A stretch of DNA of 64,000 nucleotides from Candidatus Latescibacterota bacterium (GCA_965204375.1 OZ241986.1:3008001-3072000); one strand, 5' to 3'; shown: positions 40,933 through 55,249, counted from the first letter of the stretch. Program-made: numbers and translations. Notes: generated by a model from the letters alone, not told the origin.

Positions 40933-40973
40933 GCACCTCCTGTCCTGAAATTGAAGACAGTTTTAAAAAAAAC

Positions 40974-41012
40974 TTGCATTTTAATCCAAGTGTATTATAT
41001 TAGTAATACAGT
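40974..41012 (+). promoter_or_regulatory. Promoter with YtrA-type GntR operator
   Basis: TTGCAT -35; palindrome TGTATTA-6-TAATACA (40991-41010) overlapping the -10, upstream of the GntR gene. Confidence 0.75.
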
Positions 41013-41037
41013 AATTCACTTGTTGAGAGAATACCTC

Positions 41038-41433
41038 ATGTTGATCTCGATTGACCATCACAATGGCATACCCGTTTTTCGCCAGATTATCGACCAGGTG
41101 AAATTCCACGTAGCCAGCGGGCTACTCGCGCCGGGCGACGAACTGCCCTCCACCCGCGCGTTATCGGGACAACTGGGACTCAATCCAATGACAGTGAGCA
41201 AAGCGTACAGCCTGTTGGAAGCAGAGGGATTAGTCGAGCGGCGGCGCGGACGACCTTTAACCGTAAAACCCTTACGAGATCAGACCGTACACGCCGAAAA
41301 GCTGTCACAACTCAAACCACAACTCACACAATTGGCAACAATGGTTCGGCAGTTGGGGGTTGATCGGACGGAAGTCTTAGATCTTTTCCTCTCCATCTTA
41401 GATACCCTGGAGGAAGATAATGATGGCACATGA
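41038..41433 (+). CDS. GntR (YtrA subfamily) transcriptional regulator
   Basis: PVFRQI, GDELPSTRALS, NPMTVSKAY; short C-terminus; precedes ABC genes. Confidence 0.93.
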   Translation: MLISIDHHNGIPVFRQIIDQVKFHVASGLLAPGDELPSTRALSGQLGLNPMTVSKAYSLLEAEGLVERRRGRPLTVKPLRDQTVHAEKLSQLKPQLTQLATMVRQLGVDRTEVLDLFLSILDTLEEDNDGT

Positions 41434-42313
41434 CCAGACATCTGTATTTGAAGCCACATCACTGACCAAAAAATTCGGCGACACCGTAGCTCTCAATTCC
41501 GTAACGCTCTCTCTTGGAGCGCATCGCGTAATTGGATTGATCGGGCGCAATGGCGGGGGCAAAACCACCTTAATCCAGCACATGATCGGCCTGTATTTGC
41601 CCACAGAGGGAACGTGTAAAACACTGGGACGCGCGTGCGATCAGTTGGGCGCAAACGAGCTATCGCGCATAGGCGTGGTCCATCAGGAAAACCGCTTTTT
41701 TGAATGGATGACCGTCAAACAGCATCTGCGCTACGTGTCCTCATTTTACGAGGTATGGGACCGCGACCTGGAATCACACCTGCTGCGAGAACTCGAACTG
41801 GAAACATCCGCACGCGTGGGCAATTTGTCTTCGGGTAACATGCAAAAATTGGGAATCATACTGGCAGTGTGTCATCATCCCGAGCTATTGATCTTAGATG
41901 AGCCAGTCAGTGGCCTGGACCCCATAGCGCGGGAGACATTGTTGAAATTTCTAATGACACTCTTGGCTGAAGACGAAAACACAATCGTAATCTCCTCACA
42001 CATTCTGCGGGACATCGAAAAAATAGTAGATTGGGTCGTATGCCTCGACGAAGGCAGGATCAAAGCCGACAAATCTCTGGACGATCTGCACCAGACCTAC
42101 GCAAAGTGGACAGTCACGGGAAACAACCTGCCCCAGCAATTTTCTGAGCCCTATATCCTGTCGCAAACAGTGAACGGGATACAGGCACAATTGATCGTCA
42201 ATCAGACACTGGGCAATGCAGATCAATTCAAGCGGACTTATCAGGCTGATATCACCAGTCAGTCCCTGAACCTCGACCAGCTATTTCCCATCCTGATTCG
42301 GGAGGGTGCGTAA
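41420..42313 (+). CDS. ABC transporter ATP-binding protein (YtrB-like)
   Basis: GRNGGGKT, LSSGN, LILDEP, ISSH. Confidence 0.93.
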   Translation: MMAHDQTSVFEATSLTKKFGDTVALNSVTLSLGAHRVIGLIGRNGGGKTTLIQHMIGLYLPTEGTCKTLGRACDQLGANELSRIGVVHQENRFFEWMTVKQHLRYVSSFYEVWDRDLESHLLRELELETSARVGNLSSGNMQKLGIILAVCHHPELLILDEPVSGLDPIARETLLKFLMTLLAEDENTIVISSHILRDIEKIVDWVVCLDEGRIKADKSLDDLHQTYAKWTVTGNNLPQQFSEPYILSQTVNGIQAQLIVNQTLGNADQFKRTYQADITSQSLNLDQLFPILIREGA

Positions 42314-43779
42314 TGGGTATCTCTCCATTTTTCACATTTTTGCGAAGCCCTGTTTACATTCTCATCGCATTTTTTGCATATCTGTTGCTCGCTCATGTCT
42401 GGATGTCTTCCCAAGCAGATCGAATCTCTGTATTCGTTTTGTTTTTCTTTCTTAAATTTTGGGGTGGGATAATCGGCAGCATCGTAGGGGAGAACCAGTA
42501 TCGGATGCTCACATGGACCCTGCCACATTTTCGCAAGCGTCTAATGATCTGGTCGATAATTGTCGGGTTGTTTTCCGTTATAGCGTGGACAGTCGCGCTG
42601 ACTTCTGCACCCCTCAATGCGTCCTGGTCAACGATTTTGCTGGTAAATTTGGGCCTCTATTGTATCGGATTTGCCCTTTCAGGAGGTTGGAGTTTTGGTA
42701 TCCAGCACCCCGGATTGGCTTCCAGGTGCCGGAGCCTCATCGTATTCCTGGGACTGGCATTAGCCTATTTGTGGCCAGGAGTGCTCGCTTTTGGAGAGCA
42801 ACAAAAATTGGGATTGGCTCTCATTGCATTCGTTATCGCAATTGGAGCTTATTATTTTGCCTTTAACCAGACAACTTTTCGGAGGAAACCATTTTCTTTA
42901 GTTCTTCCAGTGCGTTTAACCCTTTTTCCTCCAACCCAGGAGCTTTGGAAAAAAAATAGATTGAACAGGCGAAAGGCGAGTACCAGGGTATGGCATCTCG
43001 ATCACATCGGTACAGGCACCTTCAATTGGCTGCGTGCTGGTCAGTATGAAAACAGCGGTGCAGGCAGGGGGAGATGGCCGCTATGGCCGCTGTCCGCGTT
43101 TCCTGCAGTATTGGCAATGGTATTCTTTTTTTTTGGCATGACGACAGAGTTGTTCGGGATGTTGGGTCGATCTCCTTATGATTTTGAGACGCTATCAAAA
43201 ATGATTTATCACATGATTTTTTATTTTGACTCCAAGGTCGACGGGGATATATTCGCTACAGTGTTTTTCGGCATTTGTATGCATCTTTTTATTCCTCCTA
43301 CTTCACTGAAAAGAGGGTATGTCTATCCACTTTCTCGCACCCAGCGGATGTGGATTCGGTATAGCAGTTTGCTGGTGCAAAATATTTCTTTTTTTGTAGC
43401 ATCTATTCTGGTATTGGGCGTTCTGGGCATCCTGGCGGGAGCCAAGATCGGGTTTGTGTCTGAAGGAGAGGTTTCCCTGGGAATACTCTGTGTCCTTGGG
43501 TGGTGGGTCGTTCTTTTTCCAATATTTCAGTGGTTGCAAGTCAAATATGACCTGTATAATTTTCAAAGAACGCGGCAACAGATAGGCGGGATGGTTTTTC
43601 TGATCCTGGTCCTGATTTTGTCTCTTGTATTCACTGGTTTTACCAGTCTGATGCGTATCCGATATCCCGATCTTGTACTGACCTATGAAGTGCCGATCCT
43701 TTTTGTCTGTTTTATTCTCTTGCAATGGTTCTTATTGGCTCGGCTCAAACGGTATTATGCCACACAGGATCTGGTTTAG
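42313..43779 (+). CDS. Multi-TM membrane protein, probable ABC permease
   Basis: About 12 hydrophobic segments; TAATG coupling to the ATPase gene. Confidence 0.8.
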   Translation: MGISPFFTFLRSPVYILIAFFAYLLLAHVWMSSQADRISVFVLFFFLKFWGGIIGSIVGENQYRMLTWTLPHFRKRLMIWSIIVGLFSVIAWTVALTSAPLNASWSTILLVNLGLYCIGFALSGGWSFGIQHPGLASRCRSLIVFLGLALAYLWPGVLAFGEQQKLGLALIAFVIAIGAYYFAFNQTTFRRKPFSLVLPVRLTLFPPTQELWKKNRLNRRKASTRVWHLDHIGTGTFNWLRAGQYENSGAGRGRWPLWPLSAFPAVLAMVFFFFGMTTELFGMLGRSPYDFETLSKMIYHMIFYFDSKVDGDIFATVFFGICMHLFIPPTSLKRGYVYPLSRTQRMWIRYSSLLVQNISFFVASILVLGVLGILAGAKIGFVSEGEVSLGILCVLGWWVVLFPIFQWLQVKYDLYNFQRTRQQIGGMVFLILVLILSLVFTGFTSLMRIRYPDLVLTYEVPILFVCFILLQWFLLARLKRYYATQDLV

Positions 43780-44067
43780 TAACCGTGAGTTTTAAAGTGT
43801 GCGATGCGTTCAACGCAAATTTCGTAGGACAAAAAGCATAATTTTTGTACAATTATGCACATAAGCATTTGTTTTCTCATAGGTTTTTTAATTTTTTATA
43901 CACGGTGATTACTCCCAACGGTAGAGCAGTTGGGCTTCTTGGCGGTCAAGCCACCTGACTTTGTAATCCCAAAGTCAATATGTTTATCGCAGCATTGAGA
44001 TCTCTGTCTGCTGTATAGCCACACTTTTTGCACACGTATGTATTTCTATACCTAAAAAATAACGTGT

Positions 44068-47000
44068 ATGTTTGAAAACGGAACGATTCTCGACAAAAAA
44101 TATCAAATCCAGGCGCACCTGGGATCCGGGGGCATGGGCGAAGTCTATCGGGTTTTGGACCTGGAGCAAAGTCAGGAGTGTGCGCTCAAAATTTTGAATA
44201 CCATGGTGGATCAGAAGGCTGTGCATCGCCGCTTTCACAGAGAATTTCAAGTGTTGAACAGATTCCAGCACCCGCGCCTGGTACGCACGTATGCCTGGGG
44301 ATTTGCCGAAGAGCGTCCCTATTTTACAATGGAATATTTGCCCGGAAATACATTAGAAAAAATAATTGCCGATCATGCACGTTTAGGGCAATTCCGGACG
44401 TCTCACTTTTTCGATTTGATACAACAAATTGCTGATGGATTGGCATATATCCACGCGCAGGGTGCGGTGCATCGCGATCTCAAACCGTCCAATATTATGG
44501 TTTTGGAAACAGAAGAGGGGATCGAAACCACGATTCTGGATATGGGACTGGCCAAACTCAGGCATCTGCATAGCGTTTCCATTACGCAGACGGGCACAGC
44601 CATTGGCACGGCAGAATATATGTCGCCAGAGCAGGGTAAGGGACTCTGGGTGGATCACCGGTCGGATATATACTCATTGGGTGTGATTTTATACGAGATG
44701 CTCACGGGTGTACCACCCTTTTCTGGACAAAACCCAATATCTGTTATCATGAAGCATATTCGCGAGTCCCCGCCACCCCTGGATGAAGTCAATATCGCGA
44801 TTCCCGAACAGACGCAACAAATTGTGCTGAAGTTGCTGGCAAAGGAGTCTGTTGATCGCTATCAGTCGGCAGAAGAGGTGGTACGAGCCTTACCATCGAG
44901 ATTTGTACTACCCGATGACATGCAGCGCGATGTGCAAAGAAAAGTCATGCGGCCGCAATTTGTCGGGCGCGAATCCGAAACGAAGATATTGCGCGCCATG
45001 CTGAAGGATGTACAGGCTTGCGAGCAACGCGTGGTTCTGATCTCTGGTGAGTCTGGTGTGGGAAAAACGAGACTAATTGAGGAACTATTGGGCGACGCTT
45101 TGATCCATGACTTTCTGTGTTTGAAAGGCGCAGGCCAGGAAGAGGGCGGACAAATATACGGTGCGTTGATCAATGCTTTTCAAGGAATGACTGATTCGAT
45201 GGAAAGGGTTCCCGATTCTGTAGAATCAGACAAATTTTCTATTATGGAGCACTGGTTGCAGTTATTAAAGCGTCTGCAGCAGAAACAACCCATTGTGTTG
45301 TGTTTGGAAGATATTCAATGGGTGGATGAATTGACCCTGGAATTTTTACAGTATGTATTGCGTGATCCAGAACCGTGCCCGTTCTTATTATGCCTGACTT
45401 GTCGATGGTCTAACCTGGAACCGCTTCCAGAAGAAATTAAAAATTTTATACACAGCAATGCATTTGCCAAGGCGACTCAGATTCGGTTGAAAAATCTGCC
45501 ACAAGAAGCATCGGGATATTTAGCGGCGTCAATGTTGGGTGAACGATCCATACCGTCCGATGCATTGCAAACTCTATTCAGAGAAACGGGTGGGTTGCCC
45601 TTGTTTGTCGTGGAGGCGGTGCGGACACTGGTGAATGCCGACGTGGTTCGACAGAATGTGCCCGGCGATTGGCAGTGGGGAGAATTTCCCGAAACTTTGT
45701 TATCCGATGATATTTCAGAGATTTTGCACAGGCGCATAGCTACCCTTCCTGTGGTGCAACAGCGGGTGCTGGAATACGCCTGTGTTTTTCTAAATGACTT
45801 TTCTTTTGAGTTATTGGCAGCGGTTTGGCGCGGTGATGAATTAGAACTACTGGATATGCTGGACGACCTGATTGCAGAAGGACTTTTAGCACCTTGTGGA
45901 GAAACTGAAGATCAATATCGATTTTCACAGGAATTGTGTCGGCAGGCAATTTACGATCACATGCAAGATGTAAGACGGCGTCTGTTACATCGAGAAATTG
46001 GCAATATTTTGGAAAAGACGAAAGACGCGGAAGAATTGATAGAAGAACTGGCGGATCATTTTGCGGCAGCAAAAGAACGAGATAAGGCTGTGAAATATAC
46101 GCTTCTATCAGGCAAAAAGGCATTGGAAAAACATTCTTATCGCCAGGCATTGATGAGATTTGAGGCTGTACGGGACTGGGTAGCGAATGACGCCTTTGAA
46201 TCACCTGCAGATACTATTGATTTTTTGTGCGATTATGCAGATACGCTGCGTAACTGCGGTCAGCACAATAAAGCATTGGAACTTTTAGAGGAGGCACAGG
46301 CGTTATTGCCCGATGATCGGAAAGATTTGAAAGCGCGTATTTTGAATCGTGAAGGTGTTATTTACAGCTTGCTTCAACACAGGGAAATTGCTGAAGAATA
46401 TATGCTGGAGGCATTGCAGCTTTATCGTGAACTCGGTGATCTTGAGGGTGAAATTCAGACATTGGATAGTTTGGTTTATTTATGCGATGTGTCAGAACGG
46501 CACGAAGAAGCAATAGCGTATATGCGTCAAAAAATAGAGAAACATCATATGCTGGGAGATCCGCAAAACAGAGCTTTTATACAAGGGCGAGAAGGCCAGA
46601 CTGCATTAATGGAATTTCGCTTTGAGACAGCCAAAGAACATCTAAAAGCTGCAGTAAAAACATCTCAAAGACTTGGATTTGAACACTATCGTATTAGGGC
46701 ACTCAATTTACTTCAAAGAGTATATTTTTATCTCGGTGATCTCAATCGAGCAGAAGCCCTTTGCCATGAAGTCATCTGTGAGTGGCAAAAACGAGGCGAT
46801 GTGTATTGGGAAGCAATGAATCTTCTCTGGTTGGGAGAGTTAGCACTGGAACGAGATGATTTTACAGAAGCATTGGAATATGCCGAGATTTCGGTAGAGA
46901 GATTTTTGGAAACACCGCGAAGAGATTATGTCTATCGCGCTTATGCGATTGCGGCAACGGCTGCGGCGAGAATGAGAGATACAGAGACAGCACTGGAATG

Positions 47001-48870
47001 GGCAGAAAAAGCCAGTGAAGGTGTACAGCAAACATCGGGTATGTACACGGGCATATTGCCCCTGGTGCATTGTGGTATTGGTGTTGCTTTGGCTAAAGCA
47101 GGACGGATTGCTGAAGCTGAAGAGGCTTTTGAGCAGGCGATTGAATGCCGAAAAGAATCCAAAGGCGACAACTGGGCGCGTGCGCTACTGATGGCAGGGG
47201 AGTTTTATCTCAATTGCGATGATATGGCAAAAGCACAAGCACATCTCAAAGCGGCAAAACAGGCGTTTGAAGAAATGGAAATGTCTTATTTTCAAGAGAA
47301 AATACAGGTATTATTGAATCAATCAGGGGAATCTTCTCACGACAGTGATACTGCATCCGATTCTGAGATTTCAGTCGATACGTTGTCCGTTGATCGCTTG
47401 CGCTTGCTTTACGATATGAGCCGGGAATTGACAACAGAGCGCGATGTCAAAGTATTATTGGATCGAATTTTGGGTAATTTGTTAGCTGTTTATCCAGCAG
47501 AGCGCGTGCTTGTTGCGATTAAAAATGAGACCCCAAAAGGCTTTGTGGTCGATGCTGTGCGCTACCACAATGTAGAAGCAGATGATGCAGAAGCTCTGAG
47601 TCGGGGTATTATTCGCTGCGTTATTGAGACAAATGAGCCCATTTTGAGCATTGATGCCCAGACAGACGACAGGCTCAATCAATATCAAAGCGTAATAGAC
47701 TATCACATTCGGTCTGTATTGTGCGTGCCCGTATTCCATCTGAATGAAGGTGTGATGGGTGCGCTATATGTGGATCATCGCGGTATAGGCAACGCATTTT
47801 CTCAAGAAGATCAGACATTTTTACAGGCATTTGCAAATCTGGTGGGTGTCGCACTGGTCAATGCGAGAATGTACGAACAATTGGAAGAAAAAGCGCGATA
47901 TTTGCAGCAACAGGTCGAAAAACGATATCAGCTTGACGATCTGGTCGGGCAAAGCGATGCTATGCAGGCGATCTACCGGCTTATAGAACGCGCTGCGAAG
48001 AGTGATATTCCCGTGCTTATTCAAGGTGAAACAGGTACAGGCAAAGAATTAGCTGCGCGCGCCATACACTACAATAGTACACGCAAAGACCAGCCATTTT
48101 TGTCGCAAAATTGTGCTGCTCTTTCACCAGATTTATTGCAGAGTGAGTTGTTTGGGCACAAAAAAGGCGCGTTTACAGGAGCAACTGAAGATCATAAGGG
48201 GATTTTTGAAGCGGCTGATGGCGGTACGGTTTTTCTCGATGAAATCGCCGATGCTCCCCCACCGTTGCAAAGGAGTCTGTTGCGGGTGTTGCAAGAAGGA
48301 GAGGTGCGGCGCGTGGGCGAAACAGTGAATCGCGCAGTGGATATACGCATTATTGCAGCGACCAATCGAGACTTAAAACAGGAAGTTGCAAAAGGCTTTT
48401 TCCGCGAAGATTTGTATTATCGGTTGCACGGGATTCAGATCGATATGCCGCCTTTGCGAGAACATATTGAAGATGTGCCGTTATTGGCCGAACATCTGCT
48501 CACCCGAGCAAAAGAAGATGCAAACAAGTCGGTTGGGGGACTGACAGTGGGTGCAATCAGGGCGCTCACAAGCTATGACTGGCCTGGCAATGTGCGCGAG
48601 TTGGAGAATAAGATTCGGCGTGCGGTTGCATTGGCAGAAGAAGGTGGTGAAATCACGTCCAATTTGTTTTCGGAAGCTGTCGGCTACACGACGTCGGATG
48701 TCCCTGTCGGATACCAGGGACATTTACAAGATCGTGTTCGGGAATATGAGAAATGGTTGATTATGGATGCTCTCGAGAAATACGAGGGCAATATTACGCA
48801 TACGGCTAAAGAATTAGGGATAACGCGCGCTGGATTGCAGAAAAAGATCAATCGTTTGGAGTTGAGATAG
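44068..48870 (+). CDS. Ser/Thr kinase - STAND AAA - TPR - GAF - sigma54 activator (AAA+, Fis-type HTH)
   Basis: GSGGMG, HRDLKPSN, DMG, GTAEYMSPE; GESGVGKT/LEDIQW; TPR-like helices; SVLCVP...GALYVD; GETGTGKE, GAFTGA, FLDEI, FREDLYYRL; HTH. Confidence 0.93.
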   Translation: MFENGTILDKKYQIQAHLGSGGMGEVYRVLDLEQSQECALKILNTMVDQKAVHRRFHREFQVLNRFQHPRLVRTYAWGFAEERPYFTMEYLPGNTLEKIIADHARLGQFRTSHFFDLIQQIADGLAYIHAQGAVHRDLKPSNIMVLETEEGIETTILDMGLAKLRHLHSVSITQTGTAIGTAEYMSPEQGKGLWVDHRSDIYSLGVILYEMLTGVPPFSGQNPISVIMKHIRESPPPLDEVNIAIPEQTQQIVLKLLAKESVDRYQSAEEVVRALPSRFVLPDDMQRDVQRKVMRPQFVGRESETKILRAMLKDVQACEQRVVLISGESGVGKTRLIEELLGDALIHDFLCLKGAGQEEGGQIYGALINAFQGMTDSMERVPDSVESDKFSIMEHWLQLLKRLQQKQPIVLCLEDIQWVDELTLEFLQYVLRDPEPCPFLLCLTCRWSNLEPLPEEIKNFIHSNAFAKATQIRLKNLPQEASGYLAASMLGERSIPSDALQTLFRETGGLPLFVVEAVRTLVNADVVRQNVPGDWQWGEFPETLLSDDISEILHRRIATLPVVQQRVLEYACVFLNDFSFELLAAVWRGDELELLDMLDDLIAEGLLAPCGETEDQYRFSQELCRQAIYDHMQDVRRRLLHREIGNILEKTKDAEELIEELADHFAAAKERDKAVKYTLLSGKKALEKHSYRQALMRFEAVRDWVANDAFESPADTIDFLCDYADTLRNCGQHNKALELLEEAQALLPDDRKDLKARILNREGVIYSLLQHREIAEEYMLEALQLYRELGDLEGEIQTLDSLVYLCDVSERHEEAIAYMRQKIEKHHMLGDPQNRAFIQGREGQTALMEFRFETAKEHLKAAVKTSQRLGFEHYRIRALNLLQRVYFYLGDLNRAEALCHEVICEWQKRGDVYWEAMNLLWLGELALERDDFTEALEYAEISVERFLETPRRDYVYRAYAIAATAAARMRDTETALEWAEKASEGVQQTSGMYTGILPLVHCGIGVALAKAGRIAEAEEAFEQAIECRKESKGDNWARALLMAGEFYLNCDDMAKAQAHLKAAKQAFEEMEMSYFQEKIQVLLNQSGESSHDSDTASDSEISVDTLSVDRLRLLYDMSRELTTERDVKVLLDRILGNLLAVYPAERVLVAIKNETPKGFVVDAVRYHNVEADDAEALSRGIIRCVIETNEPILSIDAQTDDRLNQYQSVIDYHIRSVLCVPVFHLNEGVMGALYVDHRGIGNAFSQEDQTFLQAFANLVGVALVNARMYEQLEEKARYLQQQVEKRYQLDDLVGQSDAMQAIYRLIERAAKSDIPVLIQGETGTGKELAARAIHYNSTRKDQPFLSQNCAALSPDLLQSELFGHKKGAFTGATEDHKGIFEAADGGTVFLDEIADAPPPLQRSLLRVLQEGEVRRVGETVNRAVDIRIIAATNRDLKQEVAKGFFREDLYYRLHGIQIDMPPLREHIEDVPLLAEHLLTRAKEDANKSVGGLTVGAIRALTSYDWPGNVRELENKIRRAVALAEEGGEITSNLFSEAVGYTTSDVPVGYQGHLQDRVREYEKWLIMDALEKYEGNITHTAKELGITRAGLQKKINRLELR

Positions 48871-48881
48871 ACGTTGAACAG

Positions 48882-49004
48882 GTGCATCCAACTGTATGCA
48901 GCAGTGCATCCAGCTATATGCACTTGTATATCCTTATATAATTCAGATATTTATGTCTATTTTATTTAAAACAGGCGATTACAGGTGCATCCTGCCGTAT
49001 GCAC
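48882..49004. promoter_or_regulatory. Three palindromic enhancer (UAS) sites GTGCAT-N8-ATGCA(C)
   Basis: GTGCATCCAACTGTATGCAG (48882), GTGCATCCAGCTATATGCAC (48904), GTGCATCCTGCCGTATGCAC (48985), about 110-230 bp upstream of a sigma54 promoter. Confidence 0.8.
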
Positions 49005-49068
49005 TTGCGCCTGAATCTCGCAGATGTAGCACAAACAATTCTTAAATTTTATCTCCTTGTTTTTCAAT

Positions 49069-49096
49069 CACTTGAGCACATTCAAGTGTTTTTTTT
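49069..49096 (+). terminator. Terminator-like hairpin insulating the sigma54 promoter
   Basis: CACTTGA-6-TCAAGTG followed by an 8-T run; overlaps an IHF-like site at 49062-49074. Confidence 0.55.
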
Positions 49097-49112
49097 ATGA
49101 TAGGGAGATCTT

Positions 49113-49128
49113 TGGCACGGATCTTGCA
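49113..49128 (+). promoter_or_regulatory. Sigma54 (-24/-12) promoter
   Basis: TGGCACGGATCTTGCA matches consensus TGGCACG-N4-TTGC with GG-N10-GC spacing. Confidence 0.9.
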
Positions 49129-49182
49129 CTATAAAAAGGACAAATCGTTATGGCACAGAATTTTCCATTAAAGGAGGATAAC

Positions 49183-49362
49183 ATGGCAACACGACGCAAG
49201 TTGACTTTGATCAATGGGACGATAGATCAAGAAGGTAGCATCCTTATGTATCAGACTGTGGATAGTTTTGAAATTGGGAGCTGTGAACCTGGTTGGGTAA
49301 CCGTTCCCCCCCTGCCCTTTCCAGATGATGACGATTGGGACGATTTTGAACAGGCTGAGTGA
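49183..49362 (+). CDS. Putative RiPP precursor peptide (59 aa, single Cys)
   Basis: AAGGAGGA RBS; MATRRKLTLINGTIDQEGSILMYQTVDSFEIGSCEPGWVTVPPLPFPDDDDWDDFEQAE; lies between the sigma54 promoter and the RRE-rSAM gene. Confidence 0.8.
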   Translation: MATRRKLTLINGTIDQEGSILMYQTVDSFEIGSCEPGWVTVPPLPFPDDDDWDDFEQAE

Positions 49363-49383
49363 TTTACTTTTAGGGAGTGTGCT

Positions 49384-50814
49384 ATGCTATGCATTCAGAA
49401 ATGTGACATGCATCTTTTTCAAACTGAAGAGCAAAAACAGCCTGTTGCCTATCAGGTTGAGACGGGTCTGTTTTTTGAACTGGACCCCCTTTTCAAATCA
49501 ATTTTAGAATGTTGCGAGGGCTTGTCTGCTTCACAGGTTGTCCAGATGCTGGTCGGCCAATACGAGGCAGAAGAAGTTGTCGAAGCCATCGAGGAACTGG
49601 CTCAGGTGGGGTTGATTTCAGATGGTGCACTACCTGTAGTGCCCAATGTGCCGACGACAGAAGGGGTGGCAGCCTGTGGCGTATCGCAGACAGACCGTTT
49701 GCAGGTGTCGTTGCACGTTTCGCATACGTGCAATATTCAGTGTGCTTATTGCTTTGCCCACGGTGGGGATTACGGCGGCAAGGCCATGCTGATGCAACCC
49801 GATGTTGCCAAGCAAGCTATTCGATGGATCATCACCGAGGCTCAGGTGTTCGGGCGTTGCCAGATTGATTTTTTTGGCGGGGAGCCGCTTTTGAACTTTC
49901 CACTGTTGCAGAAGCTCGTTCCGTTTGCCAGGTCTCTGGGAGCGCGATTAGGTGTGCAGGTGGGATTTGGCATTGTGACCAATGGCACGTTGTTGACCGA
50001 AGAGATGAAGCAGTTTTTGGTTGATGAAAAGTTTCAGATTAAGGTCAGCCTGGATGGTGGGCGTAAAACACAGGACCGGATTCGCAAGTTTCACAATGGT
50101 TCTGGTACTTATGATGTTGTGGCAAAAAATGTGAAAAAGCTGACTGCTGAGGCACCTGAGCGCGTGTATTTGCAAGCCATTATGACCGCGTATGATATGG
50201 ATGAAGATCGGATTGCCGATGAGTTGCGTTCTCTGGGTAGTGAAAATGCGCTCATCGGTCCCGCTGTTGTCTCCCCGGATGCGCCTTATGCCATTCGAGA
50301 AGAACACCTGCCCGTTTTGAAGCAACAGATTTACAAGCGGAGCAGGCGTGCGCTCAAAGCCATTTTAAACGGTGAAGAGAGTGAGGAGTTTGATCCGAGG
50401 ATTCAAAAATTGCTGACGCGCCAGAAATCGTGTCACGGGTGTCTCGGCGGTAAGCAGTATCTGGCTGTTGCAGCAGACGGGTCGATTTATTTTTGCTCGA
50501 GTTTGGCCGATGCACCCGAGTTTAAGATGGGTGATGTGTTTGCGGGTATTGACCGCGAAAAGCAGCAGCATTTTGACACTCAGTTCAATGTGAATAATCG
50601 TCCTGAGTGCAAAACCTGCTGGGCGTGCAACTTGTGTGGTGGCGGATGTCTTTGGGATGCGCGCACGACGACGGGTGATCCGATGTATCCCAACCCGGTT
50701 GCTTGTGAACAGACGCGCTATCGCTATGAACTGGCGATGGAGATGTGTATGGAAATTGCAGAAGTGGATGCGTCTTTGTTGCAGCGACGATATGATCTGG
50801 AAGTGGTATCATAA
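49384..50814 (+). CDS. Radical SAM/SPASM peptide maturase with N-terminal RRE (PapB/QhpD/CteB-like)
   Basis: PqqD-like N-terminus; CNIQCAYC; FFGGEPLLN; VSLDG; SPASM C...C...CKTCWACNLCGGGC...C. Confidence 0.92.
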   Translation: MLCIQKCDMHLFQTEEQKQPVAYQVETGLFFELDPLFKSILECCEGLSASQVVQMLVGQYEAEEVVEAIEELAQVGLISDGALPVVPNVPTTEGVAACGVSQTDRLQVSLHVSHTCNIQCAYCFAHGGDYGGKAMLMQPDVAKQAIRWIITEAQVFGRCQIDFFGGEPLLNFPLLQKLVPFARSLGARLGVQVGFGIVTNGTLLTEEMKQFLVDEKFQIKVSLDGGRKTQDRIRKFHNGSGTYDVVAKNVKKLTAEAPERVYLQAIMTAYDMDEDRIADELRSLGSENALIGPAVVSPDAPYAIREEHLPVLKQQIYKRSRRALKAILNGEESEEFDPRIQKLLTRQKSCHGCLGGKQYLAVAADGSIYFCSSLADAPEFKMGDVFAGIDREKQQHFDTQFNVNNRPECKTCWACNLCGGGCLWDARTTTGDPMYPNPVACEQTRYRYELAMEMCMEIAEVDASLLQRRYDLEVVS

Positions 50815-50848
50815 GCAAAGAAGTTCTGATGAAAAACTGGTATCCAAT

Positions 50849-50900
50849 ACGGCATCCAAATGGGGATGATAACGCCCTGTTAGATGCCGTTTATTTTGTT
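50849..50900 (+). terminator. Long imperfect hairpin/terminator after the rSAM gene
   Basis: ACGGCATCCAAA-TGGG...CCC-TG-TTTAGATGCCGT followed by TTATTTTGTT. Confidence 0.65.
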
Positions 50901-50933
50901 TCTTTAGGTGGGAGTCTCGACAGATTGTGAGTG

Positions 50934-51926
50934 ATGGGAGAAATATATCAATCAAAAAAATCCGGCCTCAATAAATGGTCGCTCATTGGACAGCATTCCT
51001 CACTCTTAGACGTGCAAAAGCGCGCGTACCGCGTGGCGAATAGCGAATTGCCCGTCAACATCAGTGGAGAAACTGGCACGGGCAAAGAATTACTCGCCCG
51101 TTATATCCACGAAATGAGTCACCGCAACAGGGGACCCTTTGTAACCGTTGACTGTGGCGTACTCTCTTCTGAAATGTCTCGCAGCGAGTTATTTGGACAT
51201 ATTCGAGGTGCTTTCACCGGCGCCAGCGAAACGCGCACCGGACTGGTTGAATCTGCCCAGGGCGGCACACTATTCCTCGATGAAGTAGGCGAATTGCCCT
51301 CCAACCTCCAGTTGCAATTGCTACGCCTGGTACAGGAACAGGAATTTCGCCGGGTAGGCGAAGCATCCATGCGCCGGTCCGACGTGCGCTTAATCACTGC
51401 GACACACTGCAACTTGCGAAAAATGGTGCGAAAAGGAACATTTCGAGAAGACCTCTATTACCGCTTAAGTGTCGTACCTCTAAAATTGCCACCCCTGCGG
51501 AAGCGACTGAGCGATTTACCGCTTTTAGTCGCGCATTTTTGCCAGGAAATGAAAGGATACAATCGCGCGTTTTCCCCCGAAGTGATTCAAAGGATGTCGC
51601 GTTATGCCTGGCCTGGCAATGTTCGGGAACTACAACACGAAGTCGCCCGATTGATGGTCATGGCCGAAGGTAAAATTATCCGCGTATCCGACCTGCGCCC
51701 TCGCATTCGAGGAGCAAAAGCCGAGGTTGATGTATTTGACCTGCCGTTCAAAGAAGCCAGACAACTCGCGAACAGCCGGTTTATGCGAGAGTATCTCGAC
51801 AGAGCTTTGCAGCGAACACAGGGCAATGTAACCCAGGCAGCGCAACAATGCGGAATTGGCCGACAGTATTTCCAATTGCGTATGTCCGAACACGGGCTAA
51901 AGTCGGCATATTACAAGAAAAAATAA
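50934..51926 (+). CDS. Sigma54-dependent activator lacking a sensory domain (AAA+ and HTH only)
   Basis: GETGTGKE about 45 aa from the start, GAFTGA, FLDEV, FREDLYYRL, WPGNVREL, GNVTQAAQQCGIGR. Confidence 0.92.
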   Translation: MGEIYQSKKSGLNKWSLIGQHSSLLDVQKRAYRVANSELPVNISGETGTGKELLARYIHEMSHRNRGPFVTVDCGVLSSEMSRSELFGHIRGAFTGASETRTGLVESAQGGTLFLDEVGELPSNLQLQLLRLVQEQEFRRVGEASMRRSDVRLITATHCNLRKMVRKGTFREDLYYRLSVVPLKLPPLRKRLSDLPLLVAHFCQEMKGYNRAFSPEVIQRMSRYAWPGNVRELQHEVARLMVMAEGKIIRVSDLRPRIRGAKAEVDVFDLPFKEARQLANSRFMREYLDRALQRTQGNVTQAAQQCGIGRQYFQLRMSEHGLKSAYYKKK

Positions 51927-51954
51927 CACCTCTCCCATCAGGTGTTAAACGATA

Positions 51955-51988
51955 AAAAACGTCAATGGGTTTTTCCATTGACGTTTTT
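51955..51988. terminator. Intrinsic terminator
   Basis: AAAAACGTCAATGG-6-CCATTGACGTTTTT. Confidence 0.85.
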
Positions 51989-52015
51989 CCTTGCAGGGTG
52001 TTTCTTGAGCGTATC

Positions 52016-55000
52016 ATGCAATACATCGCCGACATACACCTGCACTCGCGCTTTGCCCGCGCAACCAGCAAAACCCTGAACCCCGAAAACCTGTATCGGT
52101 GGAGCCTCATCAAAGGTCTGACCGTGGTGGGCACCGGAGACTTCACCCATCCGGTATGGTTTGAAGAATTGCGCGATCAACTCGAACCCGCCGAAGAAGG
52201 GTTATATCAATTGCGCCCAGACCTCAGGCGAGGCATAGACGCCGAGTTGCCACAAGCCTGCCGAGGACAAATGCGATTTGTGCTCTCGGTCGAAATCAGT
52301 CTCATCTACAAAAAAAACGACAAAACCAGAAAAATACATCACGTCGTCACAATGCCGAGTTTTGACGCTGCGGCGCGTTTAAATGCGCGACTCGGCGCAA
52401 TAGGCAACCTGAAATCCGATGGACGCCCCATTCTTGGCCTGGACAGCCGGGACCTGGTAGAAATTTGTCTGGAAGCGTGTGACGAGGTACTCTTCATACC
52501 CGCCCACATCTGGACCCCTCATTTTGCGGTCCTGGGCGCGAGTTCCGGATTTGACACCCTCGAAGAATGTTTTGAAGACATGCTCCCCCACATCTTCGCC
52601 GTAGAAACCGGCCTGTCCTCCGACCCGCCGATGAACTGGCGCCTATCCATGCTGGACAACTACGCAATCGTCTCCAATTCAGACGCCCACTCCCCGCAAA
52701 AACTCGCCCGAGAAGCCACCTGCTTTAACACAGAATTATCATTCCGCGGGATGTACGACGCATTAAAAGACCGCGACCCAACGCGCTTCACGGGCACCCT
52801 GGAATTTTATCCCGAAGAAGGCAAATATCACTTTGACGGACACAGAAAATGCGATATATGCTGGAAACCCGTACAAACCCTCGACGCAAACGAAATCTGC
52901 CCGGTATGCGGCCGCAAATTGACCGTTGGCGTACTCCACCGCGTTGAAAAACTCGCAGACCGCGCAGAAGGCGACCGCCCCGACGTGGCGATGCCCTTTG
53001 AAAATCTGATCCCACTATCGGAAATCATCGGCTCAGTCCTCCAGGTGGGACCCACCAGCAAGCGCGTACAAACCGTGTACGAGCAAATGCTATCAACACA
53101 CGGGGCAGAATTGAAAATCCTGCGCGAACTGCCCATCGAAGAAATCGCAAAAACCGGAGACCCCCTCATCGCCGAAGGCATCCGACGCATGCGCGAAGGA
53201 GAAGTTCACATAGACCCGGGATACGACGGCGTGTACGGAAAAATTCAAGTCTTCTCCGACGAAGACCGCGCACGTCTGAGCGGACAGGAATCGCTATTTA
53301 ACATACCAGCCGAGGAGCCTTCGAAAGAGAAAGCAGAGAACGCGAGCCTGGACAAGAACACAGAAAACTCAATAGCCAAAGATCCTCCCTTCACACTTCC
53401 CACTTCTCACTTCACACTTCTCACTTCCCACCAGCAAGCAGCCGTAACAATGGAAAAAGGTCCCGTCATCGTAACAGCGGGACCCGGCACAGGAAAAACG
53501 CGGGTACTCACCCATCGCGTAATCGACCTGATCCAGAACCGCGGCGTATCGCCAGCTTCTGTGATGGCCGTAACATTTACCAATCGCGCCGCAACTGAAA
53601 TGTGGGAGCGCATTGTATCACTATCCTCGGGAGGAGAAGAACTCGTCCCAATGCGCGTGGGCACATTCCACCGCCTATCACTGGACCTCCTGCGAGAATA
53701 CGCCCCCGAGCGATTGGGCGCAATAGCCGACCGAGGAGAAGCCCGTGCCGTCTTACAGGAAGCAATCGCCGACATCGACACCGAAATATCGGTCGATGAC
53801 GCGCTCTCCCAGATCTCGCTATGCAAAGCCCAGGGACATGAAACACCCGACATCACCGACACCGAACTCCAAACCATTTACACAAATTATCAACATCGCC
53901 TGACCGCTTATGACCTCATGGACTTTGACGACATCTTGCTCATCCTCCACGACGTGCTCTGCGGCGACATTTTACAAACAGTCCAGGCGCGTTTTTCCCA
54001 TATACTCGTCGATGAATTTCAGGATGTCAACGCCGTACAGTACGCACTAATTCAAAAATTAGCTGGGGATGGCTCGGGCCTCTTTGTCATCGGCGACCCC
54101 GATCAAGCCATCTACGGTTTTCGGGGCGCGAGCGCGGGATATTTTACACAATTAAAAGCGGACTTTCCCCACGCGAACGAAGTAATCCTACAACAATCAT
54201 ATCGCTCCACCCCACAGATCATTTCCGCAGCATCCAGCCTGCTTCGCGGGCGATCGTACGTCCCCGTAAGAGAAAACGGTCCTAAACTGAGCGCCTTATC
54301 CACACCGGGCGAAACCGGCGAAGGCATCGCCATCGTAGAAGAAATCTCCCGAATGGTTGGCGGCGCAGATTTATTGCAAGCCAACGAAGAAGGCAAACGC
54401 AGCCTGGACGACTTCGCCGTCTTATTCCGCACCGGACGCCAGGCAGACGCCCTGGAAGCGTGCTTCTTACAGGCGGGGATTCCCTACCGCGTCGTCGGGC
54501 AGAAAAATTATCTGGACGCGGCCTCAGTACAGCATGCACTATCGTTTTTTAAGTGCATCCTGCGGGATGACATTTCCAGCACCCCAACCACCAGAGATAT
54601 AACCGACCTCCTCTCCATCCCCGCATTTGACCCCGGACGGGAAGCGCGCGCATCAATACGCCAGCAAATTCAAAACAACGCGCTATCGGACGCTGTGCAG
54701 GAAAAATGGGACGCCGCGATGGAAGCTGTAGATCGCTTCCGCGATGAAACATCTCACCTATCGCCTTCCGAACGCATAGCAAAATGGACAGAAGAATTTG
54801 CGACATCAGACGATATCGACCTTGAGCGATTGAGCCTATTGGCTCAGGGCGTGGATACCATCGCAGAGCTATTGGACATCATCACCCTGGGACAGGATGG
54901 CGATTTCGTACGTCGTGGAAAAATTGCGCGTCCCGAAGCCGTCACACTCATGACCTTGCATGCGTCCAAGGGCCTGGAATTCCCCGTGGTATTTATCTGT

Positions 55001-55249
55001 GGGGTTGAGGAAGGATTGATCCCGCACGCCGAAGCGGATATCGAAGAAGAGAAGCGCCTATTTTTTGTCGGCATAACCCGCGGACAAGACGAAGTGATCT
55101 TGACCCGCGCCCGAAGCCGCAGGCGATTTGGCGAACGCATCGCACCCGAAATATCGCGCTTTGTAGCCGATATCCCCGAAGACGTCATCGACTTTGTCGA
55201 TCTGCGAACTGAAAGACGCAAACCCGCCGAACAACTATCCCTATTTTAA
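52016..55249 (+). CDS. Endonuclease Q (PHP-fold) fused to UvrD/PcrA helicase
   Basis: ADIHLHSRF, GTGDFTHP, PAHIWTP, ETGLSSD, SNSDAHS, GKYHFDGHRKC...CPVC; then AGPGTGKT, VDEFQD, GDPDQAIYGFRGA, TLHASKGLEF. Confidence 0.93.
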   Translation: MQYIADIHLHSRFARATSKTLNPENLYRWSLIKGLTVVGTGDFTHPVWFEELRDQLEPAEEGLYQLRPDLRRGIDAELPQACRGQMRFVLSVEISLIYKKNDKTRKIHHVVTMPSFDAAARLNARLGAIGNLKSDGRPILGLDSRDLVEICLEACDEVLFIPAHIWTPHFAVLGASSGFDTLEECFEDMLPHIFAVETGLSSDPPMNWRLSMLDNYAIVSNSDAHSPQKLAREATCFNTELSFRGMYDALKDRDPTRFTGTLEFYPEEGKYHFDGHRKCDICWKPVQTLDANEICPVCGRKLTVGVLHRVEKLADRAEGDRPDVAMPFENLIPLSEIIGSVLQVGPTSKRVQTVYEQMLSTHGAELKILRELPIEEIAKTGDPLIAEGIRRMREGEVHIDPGYDGVYGKIQVFSDEDRARLSGQESLFNIPAEEPSKEKAENASLDKNTENSIAKDPPFTLPTSHFTLLTSHQQAAVTMEKGPVIVTAGPGTGKTRVLTHRVIDLIQNRGVSPASVMAVTFTNRAATEMWERIVSLSSGGEELVPMRVGTFHRLSLDLLREYAPERLGAIADRGEARAVLQEAIADIDTEISVDDALSQISLCKAQGHETPDITDTELQTIYTNYQHRLTAYDLMDFDDILLILHDVLCGDILQTVQARFSHILVDEFQDVNAVQYALIQKLAGDGSGLFVIGDPDQAIYGFRGASAGYFTQLKADFPHANEVILQQSYRSTPQIISAASSLLRGRSYVPVRENGPKLSALSTPGETGEGIAIVEEISRMVGGADLLQANEEGKRSLDDFAVLFRTGRQADALEACFLQAGIPYRVVGQKNYLDAASVQHALSFFKCILRDDISSTPTTRDITDLLSIPAFDPGREARASIRQQIQNNALSDAVQEKWDAAMEAVDRFRDETSHLSPSERIAKWTEEFATSDDIDLERLSLLAQGVDTIAELLDIITLGQDGDFVRRGKIARPEAVTLMTLHASKGLEFPVVFICGVEEGLIPHAEADIEEEKRLFFVGITRGQDEVILTRARSRRRFGERIAPEISRFVADIPEDVIDFVDLRTERRKPAEQLSLF
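53389..53430 (+). repeat. Heptamer tandem repeat (CTTCNCA)x6 in the interdomain linker
   Basis: CTTCACA CTTCCCA CTTCTCA CTTCACA CTTCTCA CTTCCCA, 42 bp. Confidence 0.9.

Follow-up and report, generated by a model that had tools for sequence, protein, structure and literature searches.

Covariation between a precursor peptide and the TPR sensor of its adjacent sigma54 activator in Latescibacterota

The 6.34-Mb genome of a Candidatus Latescibacterota bacterium was analysed over a stretch of 64,000 nucleotides (the window). Positions 44068–51926 of the window encode a very large sigma54 activator, termed kinEBP, a 59-aa precursor peptide and a radical S-adenosylmethionine (rSAM) enzyme, together resembling a system for a peptide made by ribosomes and modified after translation (RiPP). 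What is new here is that a short loop of the peptide co-varies with residues 730–929 of the adjacent regulator, a block of tetratricopeptide repeats (TPRs). We propose a sigma54-driven RiPP module whose peptide would be the ligand of its own TPR sensor; both the binding and the chemistry are predicted from sequence comparison, and we give this proposal an even chance of being right.

Results

Organization of the locus

The map of open reading frames (ORFs) and their translations showed five features on the plus strand: a 1600-aa ORF, a 312-nt spacer, and ORFs of 59, 476 and 331 aa. These features, the elements within them and the upstream neighbours are as follows.

44068–48870, plus strand: kinEBP, an activator of 1600 aa with Ser/Thr-kinase, STAND NTPase, TPR, GAF, sigma54 AAA+ and Fis-type helix-turn-helix (HTH) domains (Pfam)
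46255–46854, plus strand: codons for kinEBP residues 730–929, the TPR block co-varying with the peptide (Mantel tests)
48882–48900, 48904–48923 and 48985–49004, plus strand: three upstream activator palindromes, GTGCATCC-N5-TATGCA(C) (read from the sequence)
49040–49096, plus strand: A/T-rich block (TTTTATCTC..TTTTTCAA), then a hairpin and a T8 run (conservation and fold)
49069–49088, plus strand: hairpin CACTTGAG-loop-TTCAAGTG upstream of the promoter (fold −7.6 kcal/mol, z −2.25)
49113–49128, plus strand: sigma54 −24/−12 promoter TGGCACGGATCTTGCA (consensus match)
49172–49177, plus strand: ribosome-binding site AGGAGG, 5 bases before the ATG at 49183
49183–49362, plus strand: precursor peptide of 59 aa with one Cys (translation and family alignment)
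49384–50814, plus strand: peptide maturase of 476 aa with a RiPP recognition element (RRE), radical SAM and SPASM domains (Pfam)
50849–50905, plus strand: hairpin and U-rich tail after the rSAM gene, a likely terminator (fold −20.7 kcal/mol, z −2.2)
50931–51926, plus strand: EBP2, a sensor-less sigma54 activator of 331 aa with AAA+, lid and HTH (Pfam)
40951–43779, plus strand: GntR regulator, ABC ATPase and polytopic membrane protein of 488 aa, neighbours in the window's context (Pfam)

The peptide gene and the rSAM gene are separated by 21 nt. A first-pass annotation of this DNA had described a complete circuit; kinEBP, the palindromes, the promoter, the ribosome-binding site, the peptide, the rSAM gene, the terminator and EBP2 were all found in their places; what bears on its putative "IHF-like sites" is given below with the A/T-rich block and hairpin. 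The order of the circuit goes beyond chance. A scan for the rSAM family with one genome per species gave 12 loci (L001–L012), to which JGI metagenomes added L086–L089, and the succession of activator, palindromes, hairpin, −24/−12 promoter, peptide and rSAM recurs in 10 close loci. The same order was found in diverged form in L008, L010 and L087.

Precursor peptide and activator

The peptide family has 198 database matches, all unnamed or "hypothetical". Its N-terminal part is conserved (RRKLTLINGxxDxEGxI), and Cys34 is followed by a hypervariable loop (C+1 to C+6), by VPPLPFP and by an acidic DDDDWDDF tail. Cys34 was present in all 120 aligned members; it is the only Cys in 106 of them, the other 14 having two. 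The column entropy was 2.3–2.9 bits at C+1, C+4, C+5 and C+6 and 0 at L7, L9, N11, G12, C34, P42, F46 and P47; M1 was also invariant, and G18, V41, P45 and the DDDDWDDF tail were nearly so. Ser28, Tyr23 and Thr residues were conserved as well, and the Ser/Thr residues of the loop were not. In this alignment the peptide is a conserved scaffold that carries a short hypervariable loop right after its one putatively reactive residue.

The family of kinEBP comprises 461 database proteins at E ≤ 1e-100. Pfam assigned a Pkinase domain to residues 12–271 (E 7.8e-49), a STAND-type NTPase (AAA_16) to 297–436 (E 5.3e-25; 89 bits, cut-off 32.6), TPR_12 and TPR_MalT to about 720–1030, a GAF domain to 1128–1263 (E 1.5e-13), Sigma54_activat to 1292–1458 (E 1.2e-73) with an AAA lid after it, and HTH_8 to 1557–1596 (E 7.9e-11). 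TPR_12 scored 64.7 bits against a cut-off of 30.1, and TPR_MalT 36.8 bits, under its cut-off of 45. Across 52 aligned homologues there was no change in kinase residues K41, HRDLKPSN (135–142) and D158xG160 or in the Walker A motif G327–K333, nor in most residues of the sigma54-contact motif GAFTGA (1367–1372), the others being nearly invariant. The protein thus has both the sigma54 AAA+ domain with GAFTGA and the DNA-binding HTH of an enhancer-binding protein, and the P-loop NTPase followed by a repeat sensor domain of a STAND switch. The kinase and GAF domains may bring in further signals.

The least conserved stretch of kinEBP, residues 801–900, lies within the TPR domain. In an AlphaFold2 (AF2) model the block 730–929 was all-helical (pLDDT 89.8), and a structure search with the TPR model gave as nearest solved folds the peptide-binding TPR of LGN/Pins, whose channel accommodates extended peptides, and MalT domain III (1hz4, E 1e-6, TMq 0.59). 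Co-folding of the peptide with kinEBP residues 690–1100 scored 0.00 in both runs, which were made without controls; it gives no verdict and counts neither for nor against binding.

Covariation of the peptide loop and the TPR block

Distances in the loop C+1 to C+6 were compared with those in the regulator domains by the Mantel test. In nine physically linked loci, the loop followed kinEBP residues 701–900 (r 0.58, p 0.001), and every other domain of kinEBP gave r between −0.20 and 0.16. The set was enlarged to 25 with 16 peptide–regulator pairs from the database, whose regulators reach at most 88% identity with those of the nine loci. With 25 pairs and windows of 50 residues, only the four windows that make up residues 730–929 were significant (r 0.36, 0.30, 0.56 and 0.27; each p ≤ 0.001); r lay between −0.06 and 0.13 in all others, covering residues 1–729 (24 pairs) and 930–1600. 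When L012 was left out (24 pairs), the whole block gave r 0.562 with p 0.0002 and a partial r of 0.563, and the remaining 1400 residues gave r 0.059. The nearest neighbour shared the loop class in 16 of 24 cases when it was chosen by the block versus 6 of 24 when chosen by the rest of kinEBP; shuffled labels gave a mean of 4.9 and a maximum of 14. The result was replicated in the 16 database pairs alone (r 0.71, p 0.0002). The rSAM did not co-vary with the loop (r 0.06, p 0.38; 10 loci).

The top co-varying columns (760, 762, 764, 768, 826, 832, 837, 838, 840, 858, 861, 866, 867 and 877) fall on four helices of the AF2 model. Within helices they follow i/i+3/i+4/i+7 spacing (760/764/768, 837/840/844 and 857/861/864), so that in the model they occupy one face per helix. 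The PSG/PGD loops of L002, L004 and L012 share F866, K867, W877, Y858 and R760, and another TPR block is common to the loci with the loops RPFPVS (L001) and SPTPIA (L003). L004 and L012 have the genomic context of the window and L002 has a second context, described below; loop and TPR types therefore cut across the two contexts. As judged from these alignments, the peptide and the TPR block are shown to be matched specificity types, apparently moving among loci independently of the rest of the locus.

Covariation of this kind might also arise in an ordinary regulated RiPP cluster, in which kinEBP senses another cue and the product is an exported antimicrobial or similar compound. The correlation would then be a by-product of two fast-evolving segments that keep old polymorphism while recombination homogenises the rest. 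We consider this account, the main rival of our proposal, rather unlikely, though well worth weighing. Adjacent pathway-specific regulators are the rule for RiPP clusters, and hypervariable cores on conserved leaders are common in antimicrobial RiPPs. The peptide leader (r 0.42) and tail (r 0.34) follow the TPR block too, pN/pS of the loop does not exceed 1, and a GntR–ABC unit adjoins one copy of the system. Control of natural-product genes by sigma54 is also in print, having been reported for polyketide and non-ribosomal peptide genes (PMC7910581). However, about equally divergent segments of kinEBP nearer to the peptide gene showed no correlation: windows 1080–1129, 1480–1529 and 1530–1579 had mean distances of 0.20–0.25 and r between −0.03 and 0.08. 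The other 1400 residues, although rich in signal, gave r 0.06. Moreover, the ABC unit is absent from second copies and distant loci, and neither a protease nor an immunity gene is conserved with the system. What the alignments show is that the entire peptide gene and the TPR block have had one history in common, distinct from that of the 2.2 kb lying between them. Two separated segments with one history across 2.2 kb of unrelated history would require selection for matching.

A second account takes kinEBP as a biosynthetic partner. Its TPR block would then bind the precursor not as a regulatory ligand but as a substrate or scaffold, so that the kinase might phosphorylate it, for example, or the rSAM take it over. 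The covariation indicates recognition without its purpose, all 52 homologues keep the catalytic residues of the kinase unchanged, and Ser28, Tyr23 and Thr residues are conserved in the peptide; in class III/IV lanthipeptide synthetases, precursor peptides are acted on by kinase domains. Against this stand the lack of covariation between the kinase domain and the peptide (r between −0.04 and 0.09 over residues 1–300) and the unconserved Ser/Thr residues of the loop. In addition, the fusion of a STAND NTPase and GAF with a sigma54 AAA+/HTH module is the architecture of a regulator, and the rSAM has its own RRE. We regard this account as improbable.

For the proposal of a peptide ligand, selection for matching is the best explanation of the shared history, without being proof of it, and several further observations weigh against the proposal. 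The 16 database pairs were joined solely through the identical, unique size of the reported contig (12 kb to 524 kb). The 25 pairs fall in about five loop classes, which makes for few independent events, and the correlations of leader and tail show that the signal is not peculiar to the loop. Positive selection on the loop was considered and rejected, as its pN/pS of 0.91 (leader 0.43, VPPLPFP 0.14) is not above 1 and fits relaxed or mixed selection. In two of the three two-copy genomes the loops are nearly alike (EPGWVT/EPGWIA and DPYSFA/EPYTFA), a pattern that strict insulation explains less well than cross-talk or gene conversion would. Neither a protease nor an exporter or importer accompanies the trio of kinEBP, peptide and rSAM as a conserved gene. 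On the side of the enzyme, the PqqD/RRE match at residues 21–78 scored 21.7 bits, just under the cut-off of 23.4 (PF05402 is recorded for several homologues), and a thioether from Cys34, the likeliest chemistry by homology, would have an acceptor residue that is not readable from sequence.

The first-pass annotation had suggested that the modified peptide feeds back on the TPR/STAND sensor as an intracellular signal or effector. The first half of this idea gains indirect support, the loop co-varying only with TPR residues 730–929 and with neither the other parts of kinEBP nor the rSAM. As to the second half, type-like co-diversification is at least as typical of exported signals as of intracellular ones.

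Control region

The motif TGCATCC-N4-7-TATGCA occurs three times in the whole 6.34-Mb genome, and all three occurrences lie within this spacer, 110–230 bp upstream of the promoter at 49113. A strict sigma54 consensus was matched at 39 sites in the genome versus about 6 expected from base composition, and rpoN is present (413 bits, cut-off 277). Unique palindromes, an excess of sigma54 sites and the presence of rpoN together suggest that kinEBP serves this single promoter as its dedicated regulator, the promoter being one that combines a cognate −24/−12 site with putative upstream sites. When the spacers of 10 close loci were aligned, the three palindromes stood at fixed positions. The GGCACG and TTGC of the promoter were invariant, and the A/T-rich block and hairpin just upstream of −24 were kept, in 10 of 10.

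In copies of the second context, both palindrome half-sites switch together, from GTGCAT..ATGCAC to GTGTAT..TACAC. Residue 1591 of the HTH shifts with the palindrome type: it is Q in six of six GTGCAT loci, H in the paralogue within the same genome and in L002, and Y in L003, whose sites are mixed, although these changes amount to one or two evolutionary events only. This co-change fits the reading of these sites by the HTH of kinEBP itself, and it would also fit a separation at the DNA level of two copies in one genome.

The hairpin with its T-run has five copies in the genome, all about 20 nt upstream of a GGCAC-N5-TTGC site. The hairpin cassette may act as a terminator of the activator gene, as a site for a bending protein, or as both. 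Three genes of the HU/IHF family are present, none of which reaches the himA cut-off.

The repeated cassette is about 95 nt long (A/T block, hairpin, T-run and sigma54 site) and lies at window positions 49040–49128 and at C1:3608448, 4433771, 4462143 and 5164103. The last three (L167, L168 and L169) are outside this system, ahead of three other operons. In one of these, a REC-type activator precedes a peptide of 62 aa and an rSAM-SPASM protein of 586 aa; in another, a REC-type activator precedes a peptide of 67 aa and a protein of 566 aa without a family; the third has a Sel1-repeat protein. This genome thus seems to hold several sigma54-driven small-peptide operons.

The rSAM maturase

Pfam placed Radical_SAM at residues 112–256 and SPASM at 353–413 (24.2 bits, cut-off 21.5). 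The CX3CX2C motif (C116/C120/C123) and seven SPASM cysteines (C353, C371, C409, C412, C418, C422 and C441) were invariant in 41 family members. With these motifs, a probable RRE and an adjacent small substrate gene, the protein has the generic features of an rSAM-SPASM RiPP maturase. It scored below every curated NCBIfam cut-off, the best-scoring models being all of thioether-forming maturases:

SCIFF model (TIGR03974): 257 bits, cut-off 425
QhpD model: 251 bits, cut-off 453
nif11 model: 245 bits, cut-off 519
PapB model (NF047865): 226 bits, cut-off 340

The SCIFF/ranthipeptide systems (CteA–CteB and PapA–PapB) and QhpC–QhpD likewise have an RRE-rSAM-SPASM gene directly after a small Cys-containing substrate. 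The nearest solved structure is the SCIFF maturase CteB (5wgg, 206 bits over residues 22–452), which aligns with the rSAM over its full length. Apart from the scores, the substrates differ: that of SCIFF has six Cys in about 45 residues whereas members of this family mostly have one, and that of PapB has Cys-X3-Asp repeats whereas this peptide has no conserved Asp at C+4. Among the proteins listed, the rSAM family forms its own cluster of about 60 members at 39–92% identity (316–1019 bits), below which come SCIFF-type maturases at about 30%. The rSAM is strongly conserved, one 90% cluster holding 469 sequences. Judged by sequence, its family stands apart as an unnamed clade of its own next to the thioether maturases SCIFF, QhpD and PapB.

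The likeness to QhpD raises a third account, in which the peptide would be a crosslinked small subunit or a protein-derived cofactor of an enzyme, like QhpC in quinohemoprotein amine dehydrogenase. QhpD is the second-best NCBIfam model, the unit has no protease or exporter, and the peptide is largely conserved outside its short loop. However, the score is far under the cut-off of 453, a level attained by no match anywhere in the genome. Beside the system lie GntR, ABC and EBP2 genes in one context and glycosyltransferase and methyltransferase-like genes in the other, not dehydrogenase subunits, and no QhpA/B-like or other partner enzyme is conserved there in either context. A hypervariable loop that tracks the sensor domain of a regulator would also be unexpected for a structural subunit. 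This account is very improbable in our view.

Conserved trio and genomic contexts

The genome records of L001–L012 are all titled Latescibacterota or Latescibacteria. Database labels differ for some members, the NCBI names being Gemmatimonadota/Gemmatimonadetes or Candidatus Poribacteria. As determined by tblastn and reading of ORFs, kinEBP, peptide and rSAM occur in the same order in L001–L007 and L012. A check of co-occurrence of the rSAM with the peptide and a kinase-activator, suggested in the first-pass annotation, had a positive outcome: the activator lies directly upstream of the rSAM in 13 of the 14 loci with at least 1 kb of upstream sequence, all of them from Latescibacterota. Ten of these 13 activators are intact from kinase to HTH; that of L012 is in two frames, that of L005 is interrupted, and that of L087 is cut by the contig end. 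The exception is L011, with a transposase fragment upstream of an rSAM in two reading frames.

In three of these loci the damage was located. The regulator of L005 has lost its TPR region (residues ~608–1018) to an insert with two opposite-strand ORFs (L005:6534–7862), that of L012 changes frame near residue 430 (near 5953–5974), and L011 (9398–11385) has its rSAM in two frames, the upstream fragment being that of a DDE transposase. These loci look decayed or mis-assembled.

The linkage to the activator is kept in L008 and L010, whose regulators are 40% and rSAMs 53–55% identical; their peptides share the LINGxxDxxGxI start and have two Cys. In L087, with an rSAM of 44% identity, the activator C-terminus, a palindrome and a hairpin of the same kind with a T-run are visible, followed by a weaker −24/−12 site (TGGTAT-N5-TTGT), a one-Cys peptide of 56 aa, then the rSAM and after it a second one. 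Such a second rSAM-SPASM gene, of about 25% identity, is present in the distant loci L009, L010, L011 and L087 and farther downstream in L089; its best model is QhpD at 195 bits (L010:11545–13026; L087:2597–3892). In L010, a glycosyltransferase-like gene comes next after it. As their gene content suggests, these distant loci may make a doubly modified peptide.

The genome of the window carries a second copy of kinEBP, peptide and rSAM on the minus strand, 550 kb away (C1:3606751–3613506, L085), with identities of 82%, 83% and 94%, respectively. It has GTGTAT-type palindromes and neither EBP2 nor ABC genes. The context of the window consists of the GntR, ABC ATPase and membrane protein genes upstream and of EBP2 and a UvrD-like gene downstream. 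In the second context (the paralogue, L002, L003 and L005), a family-2 glycosyltransferase (GT2) gene lies upstream and a 294-aa gene without a Pfam match downstream, the nearest Atlas clusters of the latter being Methyltransf_24 (score 0.96). Since EBP2 and the GntR–ABC unit are confined to one context, the conserved unit is the trio of kinEBP, peptide and rSAM.

EBP2 has the features of an enhancer-binding protein (Sigma54_activat E 1.3e-64, GAFTGA in its sequence). It follows the rSAM in 6 of the 16 loci with downstream sequence (the window, L001, L004, L006, L007 and L012) and was found only in the context that also carries the UvrD-like gene. Its recognition helix differs from that of kinEBP, and no sigma54-like site within two mismatches was found in the intergenic stretches near it. 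Flanking by two enhancer-binding proteins, by which the first-pass annotation had characterised the system, is therefore not a defining trait, EBP2 being absent beside the second copy as well. From this distribution, EBP2 is taken to be a bystander, a neighbour in one context.

The absence of a dedicated exporter, also noted at first pass, holds inside 44068–51926; directly upstream, the unit at 40951–43779 comprises GntR, the ABC ATPase and a 14-segment membrane protein. This 488-aa protein has about 14 hydrophobic segments and matches no Pfam or NCBIfam model. The GntR scored 46.9 bits (cut-off 200) against PmtR, the regulator of a peptide-export ABC system. The unit occurs only in loci of the first context, and its membrane gene is doubled in L001, L007 and L012. 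Judging from its composition, it is a possible exporter. In the three genomes with tandem membrane-protein paralogues, these are about 82% and about 66% identical to that of the window. The protein was also considered as a fast-evolving partner of the peptide because of matches at 65–71%; these belong to a second paralogue type beside an 82–83% type, and the idea was dropped.

Relatives of the regulator, peptide and rSAM genes at 85–95% likeness were found, with window positions 43800–52000, in contigs of 4 metatranscriptome runs from 4 studies, two of them labelled sponge, one coral and one with a coded organism. A single contig runs from the promoter region across the peptide gene into the first part of the rSAM gene. 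Several contigs cease to match exactly over the 3′ half of the peptide gene, as its variable part would predict. The contigs show presence in RNA libraries only, with no transcript start, strand or expression level, and stretches that they do not cover are uninformative.

Two other interpretations of the region were set aside. The GC content is slightly lower over 42–50 kb (kinEBP 0.46, rSAM 0.50, genome 0.51) and marks no clear compositional island, and PADLOC returned only generic matches to a kinase and an RtcR/PspF AAA+ domain, giving no defence system. A fold scan showed two strong hairpins downstream of EBP2. The first codons of the next ORF, the UvrD-like gene of 1094 aa (51965–55249), overlap both of them, and its UvrD-helicase domains begin only at residue 487; its true start may lie further in, or the N-terminal 480 residues may be an unnamed domain.

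Discussion

Comparison with known systems

A sigma54-controlled peptide and rSAM module with a dedicated activator, as put forward by the first-pass annotation, is supported by the above results, and it matched no named family. Open-access full texts (without supplements) and bioRxiv yielded no paper that treats an rSAM peptide system under sigma54 or STAND control, or RiPPs of Latescibacterota. To our knowledge, control by a sigma54/kinase-STAND activator is not part of SCIFF, ranthipeptide or QhpC–QhpD systems.

Specificity types of receptor and peptide are typical of RRNPP systems, and the pairs examined here show a co-diversification of block and loop at the level of sequence (r 0.56 and 0.71). 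In the Rgg/SHP systems of streptococci, the TPR regulator reads a separate short pheromone (SHP), which is not the rSAM substrate, and acts with sigma70. The co-varying peptide of the window, in contrast, is predicted to be the substrate of the rSAM itself. The likeness to those systems (streptide and relatives; PMC13361665, PMC9389541) is that of a cytoplasmic TPR regulator beside a small peptide gene and an rSAM peptide operon. Unlike the RRNPP receptors, kinEBP is a 1600-aa kinase-STAND-GAF-sigma54 activator with a different type of HTH, in a different phylum. Neither context of the trio contains a signal peptide, a protease or Opp genes. By analogy, kinEBP may work like an RRNPP protein without being a member of that family.

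Other systems share single traits with the proposed module. In nisin/NisRK and subtilin/SpaRK, a modified ribosomal peptide induces its own biosynthetic operon; there an extracellular peptide acts on a membrane histidine kinase and a response regulator, whereas the candidate receptor here would be cytoplasmic and is fused to the activator. MalT-type STAND activators have an NTPase followed by a TPR-like sensor, and the modelled TPR of kinEBP resembles MalT domain III; unlike kinEBP, MalT has a LuxR-type HTH output with sigma70 and a sugar ligand. The NCBIfam model TIGR03903 (TOMM system kinase/cyclase fusion protein) describes a kinase-STAND protein named for its link to a RiPP system and matches kinEBP residues 379–707, under its cut-off (299 versus 706); unlike kinEBP, that protein has a cyclase domain and no sigma54 module. 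We know of no peptide ligand described for MalT-type activators or TIGR03903 proteins.

Proposed mechanism and its significance

In the proposed module, kinEBP would bind the three palindromes just past its own stop codon through its Fis-type HTH, and its AAA+ ring, once assembled, would open the sigma54 promoter; the hairpin with its T-run between palindromes and promoter would probably stop read-through. The genes for the peptide and the RRE-rSAM-SPASM protein would be transcribed as one unit ending at the hairpin after the rSAM gene. By homology to CteB, QhpD and PapB, the maturase would dock on the peptide's conserved N-terminal stretch, and a single thioether crosslink from Cys34 would be its most likely product. 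TPR repeats 730–929 of kinEBP would then read the peptide, which might keep its full length since the unit encodes no protease. If MalT-type STAND switches are a guide, binding of this ligand might drive oligomerisation and turn the activator on, which would result in autoinduction; feedback of the opposite sign is also admitted, the MalT precedent suggesting activation.

The trio may even be a pherotype-like system outside Firmicutes, in which a 59-aa peptide crosslinked by the rSAM is sensed directly and type-specifically by the TPR groove of a cytoplasmic kinase-STAND-sigma54 activator that drives the operon of the peptide; we put this forward tentatively, with the chances against it. On that view kinEBP would be the first peptide-gated STAND/enhancer-binding protein, and hundreds of Latescibacterota strains, represented here by sponge- and coral-labelled data, would have a recognition code in common. 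If the proposal of a peptide ligand holds, the module would join three themes, namely the maturation of RiPPs by rSAM-SPASM enzymes, STAND switches gated by ligands, and the enhancer-binding proteins of sigma54, a combination that we did not find described in the open literature. Its peptide would, as the first of its kind, be a candidate peptide ligand of a STAND or sigma54 activator. The matched peptide and TPR types, with at least five loop classes among 25 pairs, would make the recognition code testable by swapping and could serve as orthogonal peptide-inducible switches. The rSAM belongs to an uncharacterised clade with a one-Cys substrate. For an uncultured phylum the trio provides a function-level handle.

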